The notes under the pieces: model-generated
Databases searched by the model: none
The model's input: only the letters and a program-made list of their open reading frames with translations
What the model was told of the DNA's origin: nothing
Assembly: GCA_943349395.1 (NCBI GenBank)
Contig: CALQZH010000001.1
Location: 19,275-64,096, forward strand
Direction of reading: 5' to 3'
Length of the DNA stretch: 44,822 bases
From: Parcubacteria group bacterium
Lineage (GTDB): Bacteria > Patescibacteriota > Minisyncoccia > UBA6257 > UBA11618
Shown here: one piece after another, positions 13,285 to 36,249 of the stretch
How positions within the stretch are numbered: position 1 is the stretch's first letter
Layout: every line of letters starts with the position of its first letter
Program-made: the position numbers and the translations under genes

Positions 13285-13293
13285 AGCACCCAC

Positions 13294-13336
13294 CACTAAC
13301 AAAAGAGATGCCGTGAAGGCATCTCTTTTGTTAGTG
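13294..13336 (-). terminator. 19-bp perfect hairpin directly after tRNA-Ser
   Basis: CACTAACAAAAGAGATGCC-gtgaa-GGCATCTCTTTTGTTAGTG. Confidence 0.75.
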
Positions 13337-13973: not shown

Positions 13974-15616
13974 CTTTATCTAATAAGCTAACGAAGCTAA
14001 CAGCTAAAGAAGCTAGTATCATGTTCGGCCTGGAGAAAATCGCGTCGAAAATAGAGATCCCGCCCGAGGGCGTGGGAGCCGACTTGGCCATCCCCTGCTT
14101 CCGGGAGGATCCCGAAGCGACGGCCGAAAAAATCCGCGCCTTGAAGAACCCGCTTTTCAGGGAGGTGGTCGTGAAGGGGCGCTACGTGAACGTCTCGTTC
14201 GACTGCGCCGTCTTGGCACCGCTCGTGCTCGCGGAGGTCGCGGCGAAGAAAGACGCGTATGGCTGGAACGACAGCGGTGGGGGAAAGAAGGTGATGATCG
14301 AGTACTCGGCCCCGAATATCGCGAAGCCCATGCATATGGGCCACGCGCGCAACAACGCGATCGGCCACGCGCTCGTTAACCTCTACCGCGCGAACGGCTA
14401 CGAGGTGATCACGACGAACCACTACGGCGACTGGGGTATGTCTTTGGCGAAGATCATGCTCGCGTACGGCAAGTGGGGAAATCGCGCGGAATTCGACAAG
14501 GACCCGGTCCGGCACCTGCTTGGCCTCTACGTGCGGATGACGAAGGAATCTGCGGATAACCCGGCGCTCGAAGACGAGGCGCGCGCGCTGTTCAGGAAGC
14601 TCGAGGGCGGCGACCGGGGGCTCCATGCGACGTGGCAGGAGTTCCGCGACGTGAGCGTCGCGAACTTCGAGCGGATGTACGGCCTCCTCGGGATCTCCTT
14701 CGACGTGAAGAACGGGGAGAGCTTCTATACGGAATTCATCCCTAGGGCGATCGAGGAGGCGCTCGCGAAAGGCGCGGCGCACTACGGCGAGGCGGCGGAA
14801 GGCGGCGAGGGAAAGCCCGTCGCCGTGAATCTCGATGCGTGGAAGCTCCCCTCATTCCTATTGCAGAAGAGCGACGGCGCGTCGCTCTATGGCGCCCGCG
14901 ACATCGCGGTCGTGAAGTGGCGGCTCGAGCACTATGACGTGGAGAAGATCGTCTACGTCGTGGGGCACGAGCAGGAGCTCTACCTGAAGCAGATTTTCAA
15001 GACGATGGGGCTCATGGGCTACCCGGAGGAGAAGCTCGCGCACGTGAGCTATGGCATGGTGACTCAGGGCGGCAAGAAGATCTCGACGCGCACGGGCAAT
15101 ATCGTGTTCCTCGAGGACGGCTTCGAGGACGCAATCGCGCGCGCGAAGGGAATAAAAGAGGTGGGCATCGGCGCGATCATCTATAATATGCTTTCGATGG
15201 GCCGGGAGCACGACATCGCGTTCTCGTGGGACGCGGCGATGAGCGTTCAGGGCAATAGCGCGCCTTATATCCAGTACGCGTACGTGCGCGCGAAGGCCAT
15301 CCTCGAGAAGGCCGATGCCCCCGCTCCCCTGCCAGCGCCCTACACGCACCCAGTCCTCGAGCGCGAGGCGGCGCTCTTGAAACTCGTCGCGCATTTCCCG
15401 GGGGTTGTGTGGCAGGCGCACGCGCTCGAGGCGCCGCACCTCATAGCGACATTCCTGAACGCCTTCGCGCAGGAGTTCAACCGCTTCTACGCCTCGGTGC
15501 CGGTATTGGAAGATGGTGAGGGTCGCGATCTGCGCCTCGCGCTCGTCGCGGCTTCGGCACAAGTTATCAAAAACGGCCTCTGGCTCCTTGGCATTGCCGT
15601 GCCGGAGCGGATGTAA
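13970..15616 (+). CDS. argS: Arginine--tRNA ligase
   Basis: EYSAPNIAKPMHMGH (HIGH motif), KISTRTG, GNSAPYIQYAYVR, C-terminal PERM; start may be the ATG at 14021. Confidence 0.96.
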   Translation: MTLSNKLTKLTAKEASIMFGLEKIASKIEIPPEGVGADLAIPCFREDPEATAEKIRALKNPLFREVVVKGRYVNVSFDCAVLAPLVLAEVAAKKDAYGWNDSGGGKKVMIEYSAPNIAKPMHMGHARNNAIGHALVNLYRANGYEVITTNHYGDWGMSLAKIMLAYGKWGNRAEFDKDPVRHLLGLYVRMTKESADNPALEDEARALFRKLEGGDRGLHATWQEFRDVSVANFERMYGLLGISFDVKNGESFYTEFIPRAIEEALAKGAAHYGEAAEGGEGKPVAVNLDAWKLPSFLLQKSDGASLYGARDIAVVKWRLEHYDVEKIVYVVGHEQELYLKQIFKTMGLMGYPEEKLAHVSYGMVTQGGKKISTRTGNIVFLEDGFEDAIARAKGIKEVGIGAIIYNMLSMGREHDIAFSWDAAMSVQGNSAPYIQYAYVRAKAILEKADAPAPLPAPYTHPVLEREAALLKLVAHFPGVVWQAHALEAPHLIATFLNAFAQEFNRFYASVPVLEDGEGRDLRLALVAASAQVIKNGLWLLGIAVPERM

Positions 15617-17939: not shown

Positions 17940-18150
17940 CATATATCAAACGCCCCCTGCACAGGGGGCGTTTGATATATGCTTTCGTGGATATCGAACC
18001 AGACGGCGCCAATTTTTCCCAAGAGCGAGGCGATTGGATGAAAAATTGAGCGTTTCGACCCGCAGGGAGAGGCGATTCCACATGGGGACACACATAAACC
18101 AATACCCCTAACGAGGGGTATTGGTTTATGTGTCTATGGAATCGAACCAG
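17940..18150 (+). repeat. tRNA-Arg downstream module: hairpin, palindromic element A1, 20-bp tRNA 3' duplication, second hairpin, element left end
   Basis: Hairpin 17940-17981; TGGATATCGAACC...GGCGATTCCA at 17988-18080; CGATTCCACATGGGGACACA at 17922 and 18073; hairpin ~18090-18133; TGGAATCGAACC at 18137. Confidence 0.85.
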
Positions 18151-18896: not shown

Positions 18897-18900
18897 CAAG

Positions 18901-19161
18901 CTGATACTTAAAACCCCCATTACAATGGGGGTTTTAAGTATCAGTGTGAAATGGATATCGGGAATCGAACCGTAGGTCCCCTGTTTTCAAGAAGGCCTGT
19001 GGCCGACTATGAAAACAGCGACCTCGAGCGGAGCGAGAGGCGATTCCCGTTTTCAATTAATAATGAGATCTAACCGTAGGTCCCCTGTTTTCAAGAAGGC
19101 TCGCGGCCGACTATAAAAACAGCGACCTCGATCCGCCAACTGGCGGAGAGAGGCGATTCCC
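18901..19161 (+). repeat. tRNA-Gly downstream hairpin plus two tandem palindromic elements G1 (18959-19051) and G2 (19065-19161)
   Basis: 20-bp hairpin at 18901-18944; both units contain AACCGTAGGTCCCCTGTTTTCAAGAAGGC...GGCCGACTATRAAAACAGCGACCTCGA...GAGAGGCGATTCCCG. Confidence 0.9.
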
Positions 19162-32714: not shown

Positions 32715-32768
32715 GCCTCTAATACCCACATTACAAAATACCCTCACGCTGGAGGATATTTTGTAATG

Positions 32769-32840
32769 TGGGCAATGGGGGAATCGAACCCACGGCATCC
32801 TCTGTGTAAAAGAGGCGCTCTACCACTGAGCTAATTGCCC
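32769..32840 (-). tRNA. tRNA-Val(TAC)
   Basis: GGGCAAT/ATTGCCC acceptor, CCTCT-TTTACAC-AGAGG anticodon arm, A73; followed by a long hairpin at 32725-32772. Confidence 0.93.
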
Positions 32841-32880: not shown

Positions 32881-33004
32881 CGGGCGAAGGGCGTTGACAG
32901 AGTGCTCTAAATAGTAGAAAATACAGGCAAGTTCCCTTTTTGTGGGGTACTGCCGCTTCTTTCGGGAGCGGGTTCCAGTTTCTTGACATAGTGGAGACGG
33001 CCTA

Positions 33005-33547
33005 ATGAAGCCTCAACATGACGATGGAAAAGTCGTCGGCGCGCTTGCGGGTGCGTCGGGGGAGTCGAACGGAATTCTCAGTGGTTCGGAAAGGGGGGGC
33101 GACGGCCAAACGCACCTCTCGCAAGATGCGAGCAAGATAGTCTGCGTAAAGACCCCGAAGCCAAAGAGGAGAGATCTTCCTCGGCCCAGCACGTTTTTCG
33201 TGCTGGTTCATGGTGATGGGGATCACCATGATGCGGTCGATGTGTCTCTCGGTCAGTGTGAGAGGGTTCTCAGTCTGCTCGGTGGAGATGATGGGATTCC
33301 CCCATATCTCACGACGGATGACGCGGGAACTATCCTCGTGAGGGAATTCCTCGGAGAAGACGATTCTGAGCGTTCTGATCTGTTCTATGACGGACTGGAG
33401 TATCGCGATCCCGACACGCTGTTCGATGAAATCGATCAGAGGGATTGGGGCGATGATCCGGTGGGTCGTTGGGATGGGGATCGGGAAAAGGAAGAGTCGG
33501 ATGAAAGCGCAGAACGATGCCATGAAGACGAAGATTGCTTAGTCTGA
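33005..33547 (+). CDS. Acidic hypothetical protein
   Basis: GGAG SD, Asp/Glu-rich C-terminal half, followed by a terminator. Confidence 0.5.
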   Translation: MKPQHDDGKVVGALAGASGESNGILSGSERGGDGQTHLSQDASKIVCVKTPKPKRRDLPRPSTFFVLVHGDGDHHDAVDVSLGQCERVLSLLGGDDGIPPYLTTDDAGTILVREFLGEDDSERSDLFYDGLEYRDPDTLFDEIDQRDWGDDPVGRWDGDREKEESDESAERCHEDEDCLV

Positions 33548-33622: not shown

Positions 33623-33715
33623 ATGAAGATCGAATGAATAGATCGAAAACCACGAAGATCACTTTATCGCGGCCGCGATAAAGTGACTGGGGCATATCTG
33701 GAGAGCCTGCTGATA

Positions 33716-34270
33716 TCAGTGAAGTATCGAACGTATCGCGCCGAGCGCCGGGGGGAGCGCGGTGAATCCATCCTCCGTATTCATATGCCCGGCATGGTGG
33801 AGCGTGACGAGTTGCGCGCCGAGCTTTTCCTCTATAAGCGCGCCGCTCCCGGGCGGCACGTGCGGATCATCATCGCTCTCGATCGCGACGACAGCGCTGC
33901 ATGCGTTTTTTATACGGTCGTAGTCGAAAGGGGAGCGGAAGAAGGTTTCGAGTTCCGAGTCATCGGCCTCTAAAAACCCGGCGACGAGCACGGCGCCGGC
34001 GATGCGTGTTCCCATAGGAAGCGATTCGAGATAGCGGAGTATGGCGACGGTGCCGATGCTATGTCCTACGAGGATGGTGTCTTCATCTGGCGTCCCGACA
34101 GTGTCCGCAATAGCACTGACCCACGCATCGCGATCGGGCTTCTCGGTATCGGGCATCGCGGGGACGGATGCGGCGTAGCCCTGTGCCTCAAGCTCGCGCG
34201 AAAGCCACGGGAACCAGTGGTCGTGAGGGGTCGCTCCCCAGCCGTGGATTATGACTACGCGCCTGTTCAT
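33716..34270 (-). CDS. RBBP9/YdeN-family alpha/beta hydrolase
   Basis: IIHGWG, WFPWL, VGHSIG nucleophile elbow, SDDDPHV and AGHMN motifs; true start at 34270 (the track ORF extends into the tRNA). Confidence 0.9.
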   Translation of the reverse strand: MNRRVVIIHGWGATPHDHWFPWLSRELEAQGYAASVPAMPDTEKPDRDAWVSAIADTVGTPDEDTILVGHSIGTVAILRYLESLPMGTRIAGAVLVAGFLEADDSELETFFRSPFDYDRIKNACSAVVAIESDDDPHVPPGSGALIEEKLGAQLVTLHHAGHMNTEDGFTALPPALGAIRSILH

Positions 34271-34344
34271 TGGTGGGCATACATGGAATCGAACCATGGT
34301 CAGTCGTGTATAAGACGACCGCTCTACCATTGAGCTATATGCCC
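34271..34344 (-). tRNA. tRNA-Ile(TAT), CCA encoded
   Basis: GGGCATA/TATGCCC acceptor, A73-CCA, GTCGT-CTTATAC-ACGAC anticodon arm, CATGG-TTCGATT-CCATG T-arm. Confidence 0.9.
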
Positions 34345-34362
34345 GATAACGCTGAGTATATA

Positions 34363-34394
34363 TAAAAAAAGACCTTTTTCAAAGGTCCTTTTTT
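34363..34394 (-). terminator. ftsH terminator
   Basis: GACCTTT / AAAGGTC stem with flanking A- and T-tracts. Confidence 0.6.
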
Positions 34395-34413
34395 ATCACG
34401 ATTACTTAATTTC

Positions 34414-36249
34414 TTAGGCCGCGATCGGCTTCAACTTGAACGACTGTACGATGGCATTGAAGTCGTCCTGCTCTAAAACTTCCTTCTCGAGCAGGGCATC
34501 CGCGATGGCGGTAAGTACTTTCTTGCGCGAGCTCACGATCTTCTTCGCGAGCGCATAGGCGCGGGAAATGAAGCCCTTGATCTCCGCGTCGATCTCCGTC
34601 GCCGCTGTTTCCGAGTAGTTCTTTTCGCCGCCCATGGCGTGCCCGAGGAACATCGTCTCCTCGGTGGTGCCGAAGGCGATGGGGCCGATCTTCTCGCTCA
34701 TGCCGTATTGCGTCACGAGCCGGCGCGCGAGCTCGGAAACCTTCTGCAGATCGTTCGAGGCGCCGGTCGACATCTCGCCGAACATTTCCTGCTCCGCGAC
34801 GTAGCCGCCGAGCATCATGGCGAGGTCCGCGGCGAACTGCGAGCGGGTGCGGAGCCGCACGTCCTCGAGGGGGAGTTTCAACGTATAGCCGCCGGCGAAG
34901 CCGCGGCTCACGATAGAGACCTTGTGGATAGGGTCGGAATTCACGAGGCTCGCGGCGACGAGTGCGTGGCCCGCTTCATGGTACGCGGTGATCTCGCGTT
35001 CCTTGGGCGATATCGCGCGGCCTCTGCGCTCGGGGCCCATCATGACCTTCTCGACGGAGTCGAAGATATCCTGCTGGGTGATCGATGAGCGGTTCGCCCG
35101 CGCGGCGAGTATCGCCGCCTCGTTCATGAGGTTCGCGAGGTCGGCGCCCGAGAAGCCGGGGGTGCGCGTCGCGACCTTCCTGAGGTCGATCGTCTGCTCG
35201 AGCGGCTTGCCCTTCGCATGGATCGCGAGGATCGCCTCGCGGTCGGCGATATCCGGGCTATCCAAAGCCACGCGTCGGTCGAACCGGCCGGGGCGGAGGA
35301 GCGCCTCGTCCAAGACGTCGGGGCGGTTGGTCGCCGCGAGCACCACGACTTGGGTGTCGCGCTCGAAGCCGTCCATCTCGACCAATATCTGGTTTAAGGT
35401 CTGCTCGCGCTCGTCGTGCCCGCCGCCCATGCCGCTGCCGCGGTGGCGGCCGATGGCGTCGATCTCGTCGATGAAGAGGATCGAGGGCGCGGACTTCTTC
35501 GCGGTAGCGAAGACATCGCGGGTGCGCGAGGCACCCACGCCCACGAACATCTCGACGAATTCGGAGGCGGAGATATGGAAGAAGGGGACGCCGCTCTCGC
35601 CGGCCACGGCACGTGCGAGAAGCGTCTTGCCAGTGCCGGGCGCGCCCATCAAGAGCACGCCGCGGGGGATCCGGGCGCCCATATCGAGAAACTTCTTAGG
35701 GTTCTTGAGGAAGTCGACGACTTCTTCCAACTCGCGCTTGGTTTCCTTGAGCCCCGCCACGTCCTTGAACATCACACTGTCCTTCGAGGGCGAGAAGAGA
35801 CGGATGTTCGACTTGCCGAAGGAGAATGCCTGGTTCGCGCCTCCTTTCGCCTGGCGGAAGATGAACCAGAAAATCGCGACCATCGCGATGATCGGGAGAA
35901 GGGTGGGAATGAGGACGCTCGCCCAGAACCTGCCGCCCGACTGGCCTTCGACCGCGATCTTCACCTTCGCGAGCGCGAGGGGATCGACGCCGTAGTTCTT
36001 CAGGGTCTCCGTGAGTCCGGCCTCGTTCTCCTTTTCGGCGGTTGCCGCTGTGCCGTCTTTCATCGTTATGGCGAGGGTGTTCTCGCGCACGGTTATGGCC
36101 GTTATCCCGCCATCGTTTATCTTCGCGGCAACCTCGTTCAAGGGGAGTGTGGGCGAGGCGGTACCGAGCTCGGCGACGAGGGAGAATGCGAATGAGAGCG
36201 CGATGAGGATAGTTATGGCCCAGAAAACGTTCTTGTAGAGGAATTTCAT
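34414..36249 (-). CDS. ftsH: ATP-dependent zinc metalloprotease FtsH
   Basis: Two TMs, GAPGTGKT Walker A, FIDEID Walker B, RPGRFDR and HEAGH. Confidence 0.97.

Follow-up and report, generated by a model that had tools for sequence, protein, structure and literature searches.

The tRNA punctuation of animal mitochondrial transcripts, in which messages are set off by transfer RNAs (tRNAs), was reportedly described by Ojala, Montoya and Attardi in 1981, and to our knowledge 5′ ends of messenger RNAs (mRNAs) that are set by processing at tRNAs are textbook knowledge for mitochondria only. In Escherichia coli, the thrU-tyrU-glyT-thrT-tufB unit has a protein gene co-transcribed behind tRNAs from the tRNA promoter and separated from them by processing. 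A different route to messages with little or no leader is described in PMC4633059 and PMC4681348 for Actinobacteria and Deinococcus, where promoter-derived mRNAs carry the AUG at or near their 5′ end and are initiated independently of a Shine-Dalgarno (SD) sequence, and loss of the anti-SD sequence in a subgroup of the Parcubacteria has been reported by Tsurumaki et al. (2022; PMC9297842). The locus considered here lies in a 44,822-nucleotide (nt) stretch from a Parcubacteria group bacterium (assembly GCA_943349395.1, contig CALQZH010000001.1, positions 19,275 to 64,096 of the forward strand), called the window below; unless another contig is named, coordinates are those of the window. In it, the gene for a YdeN/RBBP9-type serine hydrolase begins at the first base after the encoded CCA of a tRNA-Ile(UAU) gene on the same strand. 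The genome of the window, G000, comprises 622 kb in 22 contigs, with 58% G+C, 97.6% completeness and 43 tRNAs. Similar junctions recur within it and in relatives, and it is proposed that maturation of the tRNA probably frees the downstream message.

The tRNA-Ile(UAU) gene (34271..34344, minus strand; anticodon TAT, 74 nt) was found with ARAGORN and matches Rfam RF00005 with 74.7 bits; its acceptor stem has 7/7 pairs, its discriminator is A, and its CCA is encoded at 34273-34271. The minus strand reads ...GTATGCCCA-CCA-ATG AAC AGG CGC... or, over a longer distance, ...GGTTCGATTCCATGTATGCCCA-CCA-ATG AAC AGG CGC GTA GTC ATA ATC CAC GGC TGG, with the ATG at 34270-34268 and a spacer of 0 nt after the CCA, so that the tRNA gene directly abuts a start codon on its own strand. 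A preliminary description of this DNA had noted both the zero spacer (CCA at 34273-34271, ATG at 34270) and the lack of an SD sequence before the ATG, and both observations stand: the bases upstream are those of the tRNA, and the 16S ribosomal RNA (rRNA) has no CCUCC tail. Its further statement that this is the only tRNA with an encoded CCA holds among the six tRNAs of the window but not genome-wide, where 8/43 tRNAs have CCA after the discriminator; similarly, the hairpin module said to be missing is indeed missing directly behind tRNA-Ile, but a 13-bp hairpin (33659-33686) is found 32 nt past the hydrolase stop. When tRNA-Ile was folded together with the first 56 nt from the open reading frame (ORF), the predicted cloverleaf was kept and the AUG was unpaired. 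A single Logan contig of sequencing run X2 crosses the whole stretch with 0 differences, support that is not independent, as X2 may be the source of the assembly.

The hydrolase coding sequence (33716..34270, minus strand) has its ATG at 34270, its TGA stop at 33718-33716, and a product of 184 amino acids. The protein belongs to Pfam family PF06821, Ser_hydrolase (E 3e-31; 109.1 bits, the cut-off being 22), with residues 5-174 aligned to positions 1-165 of the 172-position profile, and the closest solved structure is Bacillus subtilis YdeN (1UXO; E 1.9e-30, query residues 3-178 against chain residues 5-182), whose AHSLG aligns with the nucleophile elbow GHSIG of the hydrolase, in agreement with the GxSxG pattern. 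It thus has the fold family, the length (about 185-190 amino acids) and the GxSxG nucleophile in common with YdeN/RBBP9 (PF06821), and the protein itself has no unusual feature; we know of no substrate for PF06821 in bacteria. Mechanically, the ORF extends into the tRNA as far as 34330. In-frame ATGs within the tRNA were considered as starts and ruled out, since in G001, a genome of the same genus, a 1-nt shift in spacing puts the T-arm ATG into another frame, and homologues start at the junction ATG. The N-termini of 11 homologues from relatives, a comparison that the preliminary description had proposed, read M-x-(K/R)-R-V-(V/F)-I-I-H-G-W, all at an aligned ATG, and place the start at 34270. 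The next in-frame ATG downstream is codon 39, within the fold. Because of these N-termini, the frame in G001 and the position of that next ATG, the junction ATG is taken as the start.

Two side observations concern codon use and decoding. Of the 185 codons of the hydrolase gene, 6 are ATA (numbers 7, 77, 120, 146, 179, and 182), compared to 13 per 1000 genome-wide, and ATA is the codon read by the tRNA-Ile(UAU) directly upstream; the excess is marginal, and a link between the two was not built on. The second observation relates to window 34271-34344 and G000 C7:27211-27404: AUA is read by tRNA-Ile(UAU) in G000, there are only two CAU tRNAs, and a search of the genome, which is 97.6% complete, did not find TilS (TIGR02432). 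A tRNA-Ile(UAU) is also present in G001 and in G037, a low-G+C genome from another family.

The setting in which such a start would have to function is one without SD recognition. The 3′ end of the G000 16S rRNA reads ...GTAGATCAC followed by TTAATT (contig C10, about 14302-14350, plus strand), without CCUCC, and CCUCC is likewise missing from 4/4 relatives whose 16S 3′ ends were recovered (G006, G011, G018, and G037, from three families; loci L095-L098). The 16S of G001 gave no match to the probe and so is not among them. For an overview of start regions, a home-made gene finder was used, which predicted 606 genes, 178 of them with firm, that is, unambiguous, ATG starts. No SD enrichment was found upstream of these 178 (SD-like words in 30/178, against 24/178 in a control window), and the translation system of G000 is SD-independent by both measures, the 16S end and the start regions. 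Instances of TANNNT begin preferentially at -12 (20/178 firm starts), with a smaller peak at -15 (12/178), and the -12 peak is also seen in operon-first genes (25/291). These peaks have the form expected as the signature of leaderless transcripts or of transcripts with 3-nt leaders. Because the 16S rRNA has no anti-SD and many genes have a -10 box at -12 to -7, the leaderless route would appear to be normal in G000.

The hydrolase of G000 does not have the -10 hexamer of a promoter-derived leaderless gene: there is no -10-like TANNNT within 45 nt upstream of its ATG, and the bases at -12 to -7 are GTATGC. A leaderless promoter hidden in the tRNA is therefore unlikely. Members of the same hydrolase family elsewhere have the other kinds of upstream sequence that would be expected. 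Two in Actinobacteria have GGAGGA upstream, and in the Patescibacteria TATACT or TAGAAT stands exactly at -12 to -7 in three genomes (G047, a Nomurabacteria, and another genome; L163, L164), while a tRNA end precedes the start in G000, G001, and G037.

The tRNA-Ile junction is one of several in the genome. A start codon is found 2-6 nt after the discriminator of 7/43 tRNAs, six of these with gene-like codon usage. Besides tRNA-Ile(UAU), with CCA between discriminator and ATG and the 184-amino-acid hydrolase behind it (codon score 0.176 per codon), they are tRNA-His, with CA and an ORF of at least 91 amino acids that runs off the contig (0.302); tRNA-Glu(CUC), with CAT and an alpha/beta hydrolase of 287 amino acids (0.243); tRNA-Pro(UGG), with CCAT and a 95-amino-acid ORF (0.252); tRNA-Thr(CGU), with CACG and a prfB-like release factor of 239 amino acids (0.374); tRNA-Val(GAC), with CACAT and a PseudoU_synth_2 protein of 225 amino acids (0.282); and tRNA-Cys, with CAAAAA and a 204-amino-acid ORF that is doubtful at a codon score of 0.004. 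Pfam families were confirmed for four of the seven genes. An eighth case, behind tRNA-Ala(UGC) on contig C3, was dropped as spurious, its 88-amino-acid ORF overlapping a tRNA-Lys and having a negative codon score. An ATG-initiated ORF of at least 90 amino acids occurs at an offset of 0-5 in 2.9% of random positions, and compared to this baseline the excess of junctions has P = 2e-4 (7/43) or P = 1.4e-3 (6/43); compared to the density of predicted gene starts, P = 3e-9 (6/43). The junctions in G000 are beyond chance. As at the hydrolase, TANNNT is absent within 45 nt upstream of the ATG at six of the seven, with one at -33 in the seventh.

The bases that follow the discriminator are themselves far from mixed across the 43 tRNA genes: CA is found at 26/43 and CCA at 8/43 (examples in the window are at 13336, 17940, 18897, 32768, and 43215), and the habit of CA after the discriminator is shared by G001 and G037. 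This may hint at a processing signal, with a sequence-guided cut near N73-C/A.

The hydrolase is present in 16/61 genomes of the order. In G001, where the protein is 77% identical, the order ftsH - tRNA-Ile(UAU) - hydrolase is kept, and the junction reads GGCCCA-CC-ATG, the A of CCA being the A of the ATG. In G037 the hydrolase lies instead behind tRNA-Glu(UUC), with the junction GGGGTCA-CA-ATG and a TTGAAT-17-TATAAT promoter before the tRNA. In genus g8 (G011, G015) it is 147 nt after tRNA-Arg(UCU), and in a scan of contigs with the hydrolase none of 9 loci had an adjacent tRNA on the same strand. Junctions of other genes are present in these relatives as well: in G001, 37 of 49 tRNA matches were examined and 5 of them form junctions, and in G037, 38 of 46 were examined, with 2 junctions. 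The zero spacing, whose conservation the preliminary description had proposed as a check, is not conserved, since the nearest relative, G001, reads CC-ATG. Variable spacing had been named there as a sign against the whole idea, and formally it does occur, by 1 nt; yet the start codon is never more than 2-3 nt from the discriminator in these cases, which fits a short-leader model rather than a strict cut between CCA and AUG. Exact zero spacing excepted, the junction is conserved in relatives.

Two of the core genes give a broader view. A prfB-like gene is present in 61/61 genomes of the order; of 30 loci, 27 have tRNA-Thr(CGU) upstream, and in 9/30, from families f1, f2, f3, and f17, an in-frame start lies 1-6 nt after the discriminator. 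In two more genomes (G021 and G038) a C-ATG directly follows the tRNA; it precedes the prfB match by 326 and 308 nt and is out of frame with it, an arrangement that would fit a full-length prfB with a +1 frameshift. A rluD-like gene is present in 55/61 genomes; among the best 30 loci, 23 have a tRNA upstream on the same strand (tRNA-Val(GAC) in 22), and at 12 the discriminator is followed within 3-5 nt by a start in frame. Both junctions are conserved beyond single families. Distances from tRNA to gene in the loci of both types are bimodal, at either 1-6 nt or at least 22 nt.

Some features of these two genes were noted in passing. The prfB-like gene of G000 (L003:114-833, minus strand; G000:C3:22713-23432) encodes 239 amino acids that match prfB positions 110-352 of 353, and its N-terminal domain is missing. 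In many genomes of the order the open frames of the two release-factor paralogues span about 240-260 amino acids, and in others 340-377 (loci L129-L158). In G009 and G013 (L112, L113) the rluD-like ORF has an extra N-terminal stretch of about 135 amino acids, starting 4 nt after tRNA-Val(GAC), which represents a fusion or else another gene that shares the frame.

Upstream of tRNA-Ile there is a sigma-70-like promoter match, TTGAAA-16-TATACT (34355..34382, minus strand), which is a consensus match only, at 10/12 positions; the end of its -10 lies 10 nt ahead of where the tRNA begins. In the surrounding 4-kb region, 5 promoter-like sites were found where 1.5 are expected. This one is presumed to be the promoter of a unit made up of tRNA and hydrolase. 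At the other end, past the hydrolase stop, is a perfect palindrome of 14+14 nt (inverted repeat I2, 33659..33686, minus strand, 100% complementary) that forms a 13-bp stem when folded and is followed by UCUUCGUGGUUUUCG, a U-rich stretch. The fold has -23.1 kcal/mol (z -2.1), and 4/200 shuffled sequences fold as well; the hairpin is the probable end of the transcription unit. The unit is laid out, on these readings, as promoter - tRNA - ORF - hairpin.

With this anatomy, its recurrence and its conservation, the absence of an SD/anti-SD system suggests the following course of expression, which we consider the likelier account, with a fair amount of doubt left. The hydrolase gene lacks its own promoter, leader and ribosome-binding site and is probably co-transcribed from the tRNA promoter, and maturation of the tRNA 3′ end would free a near-leaderless mRNA. 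In detail, the sigma-70-like promoter before tRNA-Ile(UAU) would give rise to one tRNA-mRNA precursor ending at the hairpin 32 nt past the stop; an endonuclease acting at the tRNA 3′ end would cut directly at the discriminator or C(C)A, or immediately behind it, creating an mRNA 5′ end with a leader of 0-3 nt; and the freed message would be translated by the leaderless route. The tRNA end would thus substitute for a transcription start site, and the output of hydrolase would depend on the transcription and maturation of tRNA-Ile. A folded tRNA 0-6 nt upstream of an AUG cannot pass the mRNA exit channel of the ribosome, and therefore removal of the tRNA should be needed for initiation.

A number of points weigh against this proposal. 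RNase Z (TIGR02651) is over the cut-off in 0/61 genomes of the order, compared to 9/14 control genomes. The weak matches to its profile in G000 are RNase J and a ComEC-like metallo-beta-lactamase (MBL) protein only, the latter a 284-amino-acid ORF on contig C3 that is ComEC-like by motif inspection rather than by family search. As a candidate for the cutting enzyme RNase Z was rejected on this result, in G000 as in the 61 genomes, and it is not the agent of the proposed cut. RNase P RNA in G000 (C3:10283-10693) is divergent, with a full-length match below the threshold (46.6 bits against 100), and the pair of enzymes expected for tRNA excision, RNase P and RNase Z, was not found complete. G000 does have a CCA-adding enzyme, RNase Y, RNase J, and S1-domain proteins, one of them with three S1 domains. 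If tRNA 3′ ends were made by exonucleases, the mRNA downstream would be destroyed rather than released, and an mRNA with a 5′ monophosphate is a good substrate for RNase J, which the genome has. The spacing is not fixed, with 3 nt after the discriminator in G000, 2 nt in G001, and 2-6 nt at other junctions, and both the promoter and the terminator calls are matches to consensus alone. The hydrolase itself has a codon score (0.176) below the genome median (0.273) and is found in only 16/61 relatives, and could be a recent, poorly expressed arrival. Among the sequencing runs listed as containing this DNA, none are RNA runs. The suggestion in the preliminary description, a leaderless mRNA made by tRNA processing, is partly supported and, strengthened by recurrence and conservation, is the best account at hand: recurrence, conservation, the lack of an anti-SD, the commonness of leaderless promoters and the lack of a -10-like hexamer in the 3′ half of the tRNA speak for it, and the 0/61 result for RNase Z and the inconstant zero spacing against it. 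As side observations on these enzymes, a family of MBL proteins of about 460 amino acids gives weak RNase Z matches in some genomes of the order and none in genus g1, and RNase Z is not detectable although most tRNA genes are without CCA.

The flush junction could also be a by-product of insertion, if an accessory single-gene cassette entered the 3′ end of tRNA-Ile by recombination and so came to separate the tRNA from the hairpin that originally followed it. The patchy distribution of the hydrolase and its below-median codon score would agree with this, as would the fact that the tRNA before it varies with the lineage, being Ile-UAU in g1, Glu-UUC in G037 and, at a distance of 147 nt, Arg-UCU in g8. 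Right after the hydrolase, just before the hairpin, there is a weak copy (direct repeat D5, 33690..33702, minus strand, 11/13 positions) of the tRNA-Ile 3′ end at 34287-34275, and for many other tRNAs of G000 the 3′ end is repeated almost perfectly 70-210 nt downstream. However, D5 is not significant, 20% of shuffled tails scoring as well, such a repeat is found at 0/6 of the other junction genes, and there is no recombinase between tRNA and repeat, where the hydrolase is the sole ORF. In agreement with insertion, again, the assembly graph of run X1 branches at 34273-34281, but the branches are single contigs of low depth (3.1 and 5.7) that may belong to other strains or species. Of these Logan contigs, one of 1409 nt joins the 3′ part of the tRNA to unrelated DNA and one of 388 nt joins the hydrolase start and 11 nt of tRNA to unrelated DNA, which suggests strain or species variants of the junction in the sampled water. 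Conserved junctions of core genes (prfB-like and rluD-like) are not explicable by recent insertion, and a scar of this kind is kept as a plausible origin, though one of low probability. It concerns the origin of the arrangement and not its expression, and is compatible with the processing model.

Two other explanations leave tRNA maturation without a part or the arrangement without a function. Transcription might start independently inside the tRNA gene, or internal initiation by ribosomes might take place on the tRNA-mRNA before any processing. In favour, G000 has many leaderless promoters, a precise cut is not assured without RNase Z, and with a three-S1-domain protein encoded, leader-independent loading of the 30S subunit is conceivable. 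Against a hidden start, TANNNT is lacking within 45 nt of the ATG at the hydrolase, with its GTATGC at -12 to -7, and at 5/6 other junctions, and the 3′ halves of the junction tRNAs differ from one another, which makes a common hidden promoter unlikely; against translation of an uncleaved transcript, a folded tRNA at -1 to -6 would, from structural knowledge, be sterically incompatible with the mRNA exit channel. We regard both variants as improbable. Still less credible is genome compaction without function, by which intergenic DNA in a 622-kb genome needing no SD spacer has shrunk to zero, with the hydrolase barely expressed or decaying. Gaps between genes on the same strand are mostly -4 to +10 nt, and the codon score of the hydrolase is low, but other tRNAs keep hairpin modules of 30-50 nt behind them, so that tRNA 3′ ends are not generally compacted, and the tRNA-gene distances in relatives fall into the two classes of 1-6 nt and at least 22 nt. 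The hydrolase ORF is also intact, with its catalytic motif, and is 77% identical in G001, where the junction is kept.

The surroundings of the unit are as follows. Upstream, on the same strand, is ftsH (34414..36249, minus strand; 611 amino acids, Peptidase_M41 and AAA), with a terminator-like hairpin behind it (inverted repeat I1, 34362..34396, minus strand) that has 16-nt arms with 94% complementarity, a 3-nt loop, and flanking A and T runs, and overlaps the -35 of the tRNA promoter. Downstream, at window positions 33002-33547, an ORF of 173 and one of 180 amino acids overlap on opposite strands, with low codon scores and no Pfam family for either. The next tRNA is tRNA-Val(UAC) (32768..32840, minus strand), which has its own promoter-like site at 32880-32852 and a long hairpin directly behind it. 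Long G+C hairpins flanked by A/T are found at once behind CCA-less tRNAs (window 13290-13336, 17941-17985, 18898-18945, 32720-32768, and others), and at these tRNAs the outer stem can pair with the last bases of the tRNA (CAC/GTG). The copies of tRNA 3′ ends found 70-210 nt downstream start with GGCGA instead of TTCGA.

If the proposed cut is real, the 5′ ends of some messages in this lineage would be set by RNA processing rather than by transcription initiation, and protein output would be coupled to the making of tRNA. This would bear on how start codons are chosen by ribosomes without an anti-SD in a bacterial radiation that is among the largest of the uncultured ones. It also points to a missing tRNA 3′-end nuclease in a lineage where tRNA genes are mostly CCA-less and RNase Z is undetectable. 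A wider picture, which we hold only tentatively and with less confidence than the account of the hydrolase, is that in a whole order of Patescibacteria that has lost both anti-SD and RNase Z, tRNA genes might serve to generate the 5′ ends of mRNAs, as a bacterial counterpart of the punctuation in mitochondria, with both core genes (prfB, rluD-like) and mobile accessory genes, the hydrolase among them, plugged in flush behind the tRNAs so that their leaderless messages would arise from tRNA maturation, and with CA or CCA marking the site of a 3′-processing endonuclease that cuts around N73-C/A and serves tRNA and mRNA alike. For the annotation of such genomes a simple rule is suggested, by which the first ATG behind a tRNA is the likely true start and extensions of ORFs into the tRNA are artefacts. 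No publication on such junctions in Patescibacteria or other bacteria was found in a search that had most subscription journals outside its scope.

Among known systems, the likeness is greatest to mitochondria, where the gap between tRNAs and adjoining coding sequences is 0 to a few nt, mRNAs are nearly without leader or SD, and the ribosome has no anti-SD. G000 belongs by contrast to a cellular bacterium, in which each small unit has its ordinary promoter and terminator instead of being part of one genome-length polycistron; about 1/7 of its tRNAs are used in this way; and the tRNA would set only the 5′ end of the mRNA, the 3′ end being given by a hairpin. The mitochondrial 3′-end enzyme is RNase Z (ELAC2), which was not found in the 61 genomes of the order. 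The layout works like mitochondrial tRNA punctuation without being a strict member of it, since RNase Z was not found and only the 5′ ends of mRNAs are tRNA-defined. With promoter-derived leaderless mRNAs, G000 has in common many genes with a -10 box at -12 to -7, but at the hydrolase there is no -10 box before the ATG, and the 5′ end would come from processing, with a monophosphate, rather than from initiation, with a triphosphate. The thrU-tyrU-glyT-thrT-tufB unit of E. coli differs in that its mRNA keeps an SD leader, with the start codon far away from the tRNA end, whereas in G000 the start is flush with the tRNA.

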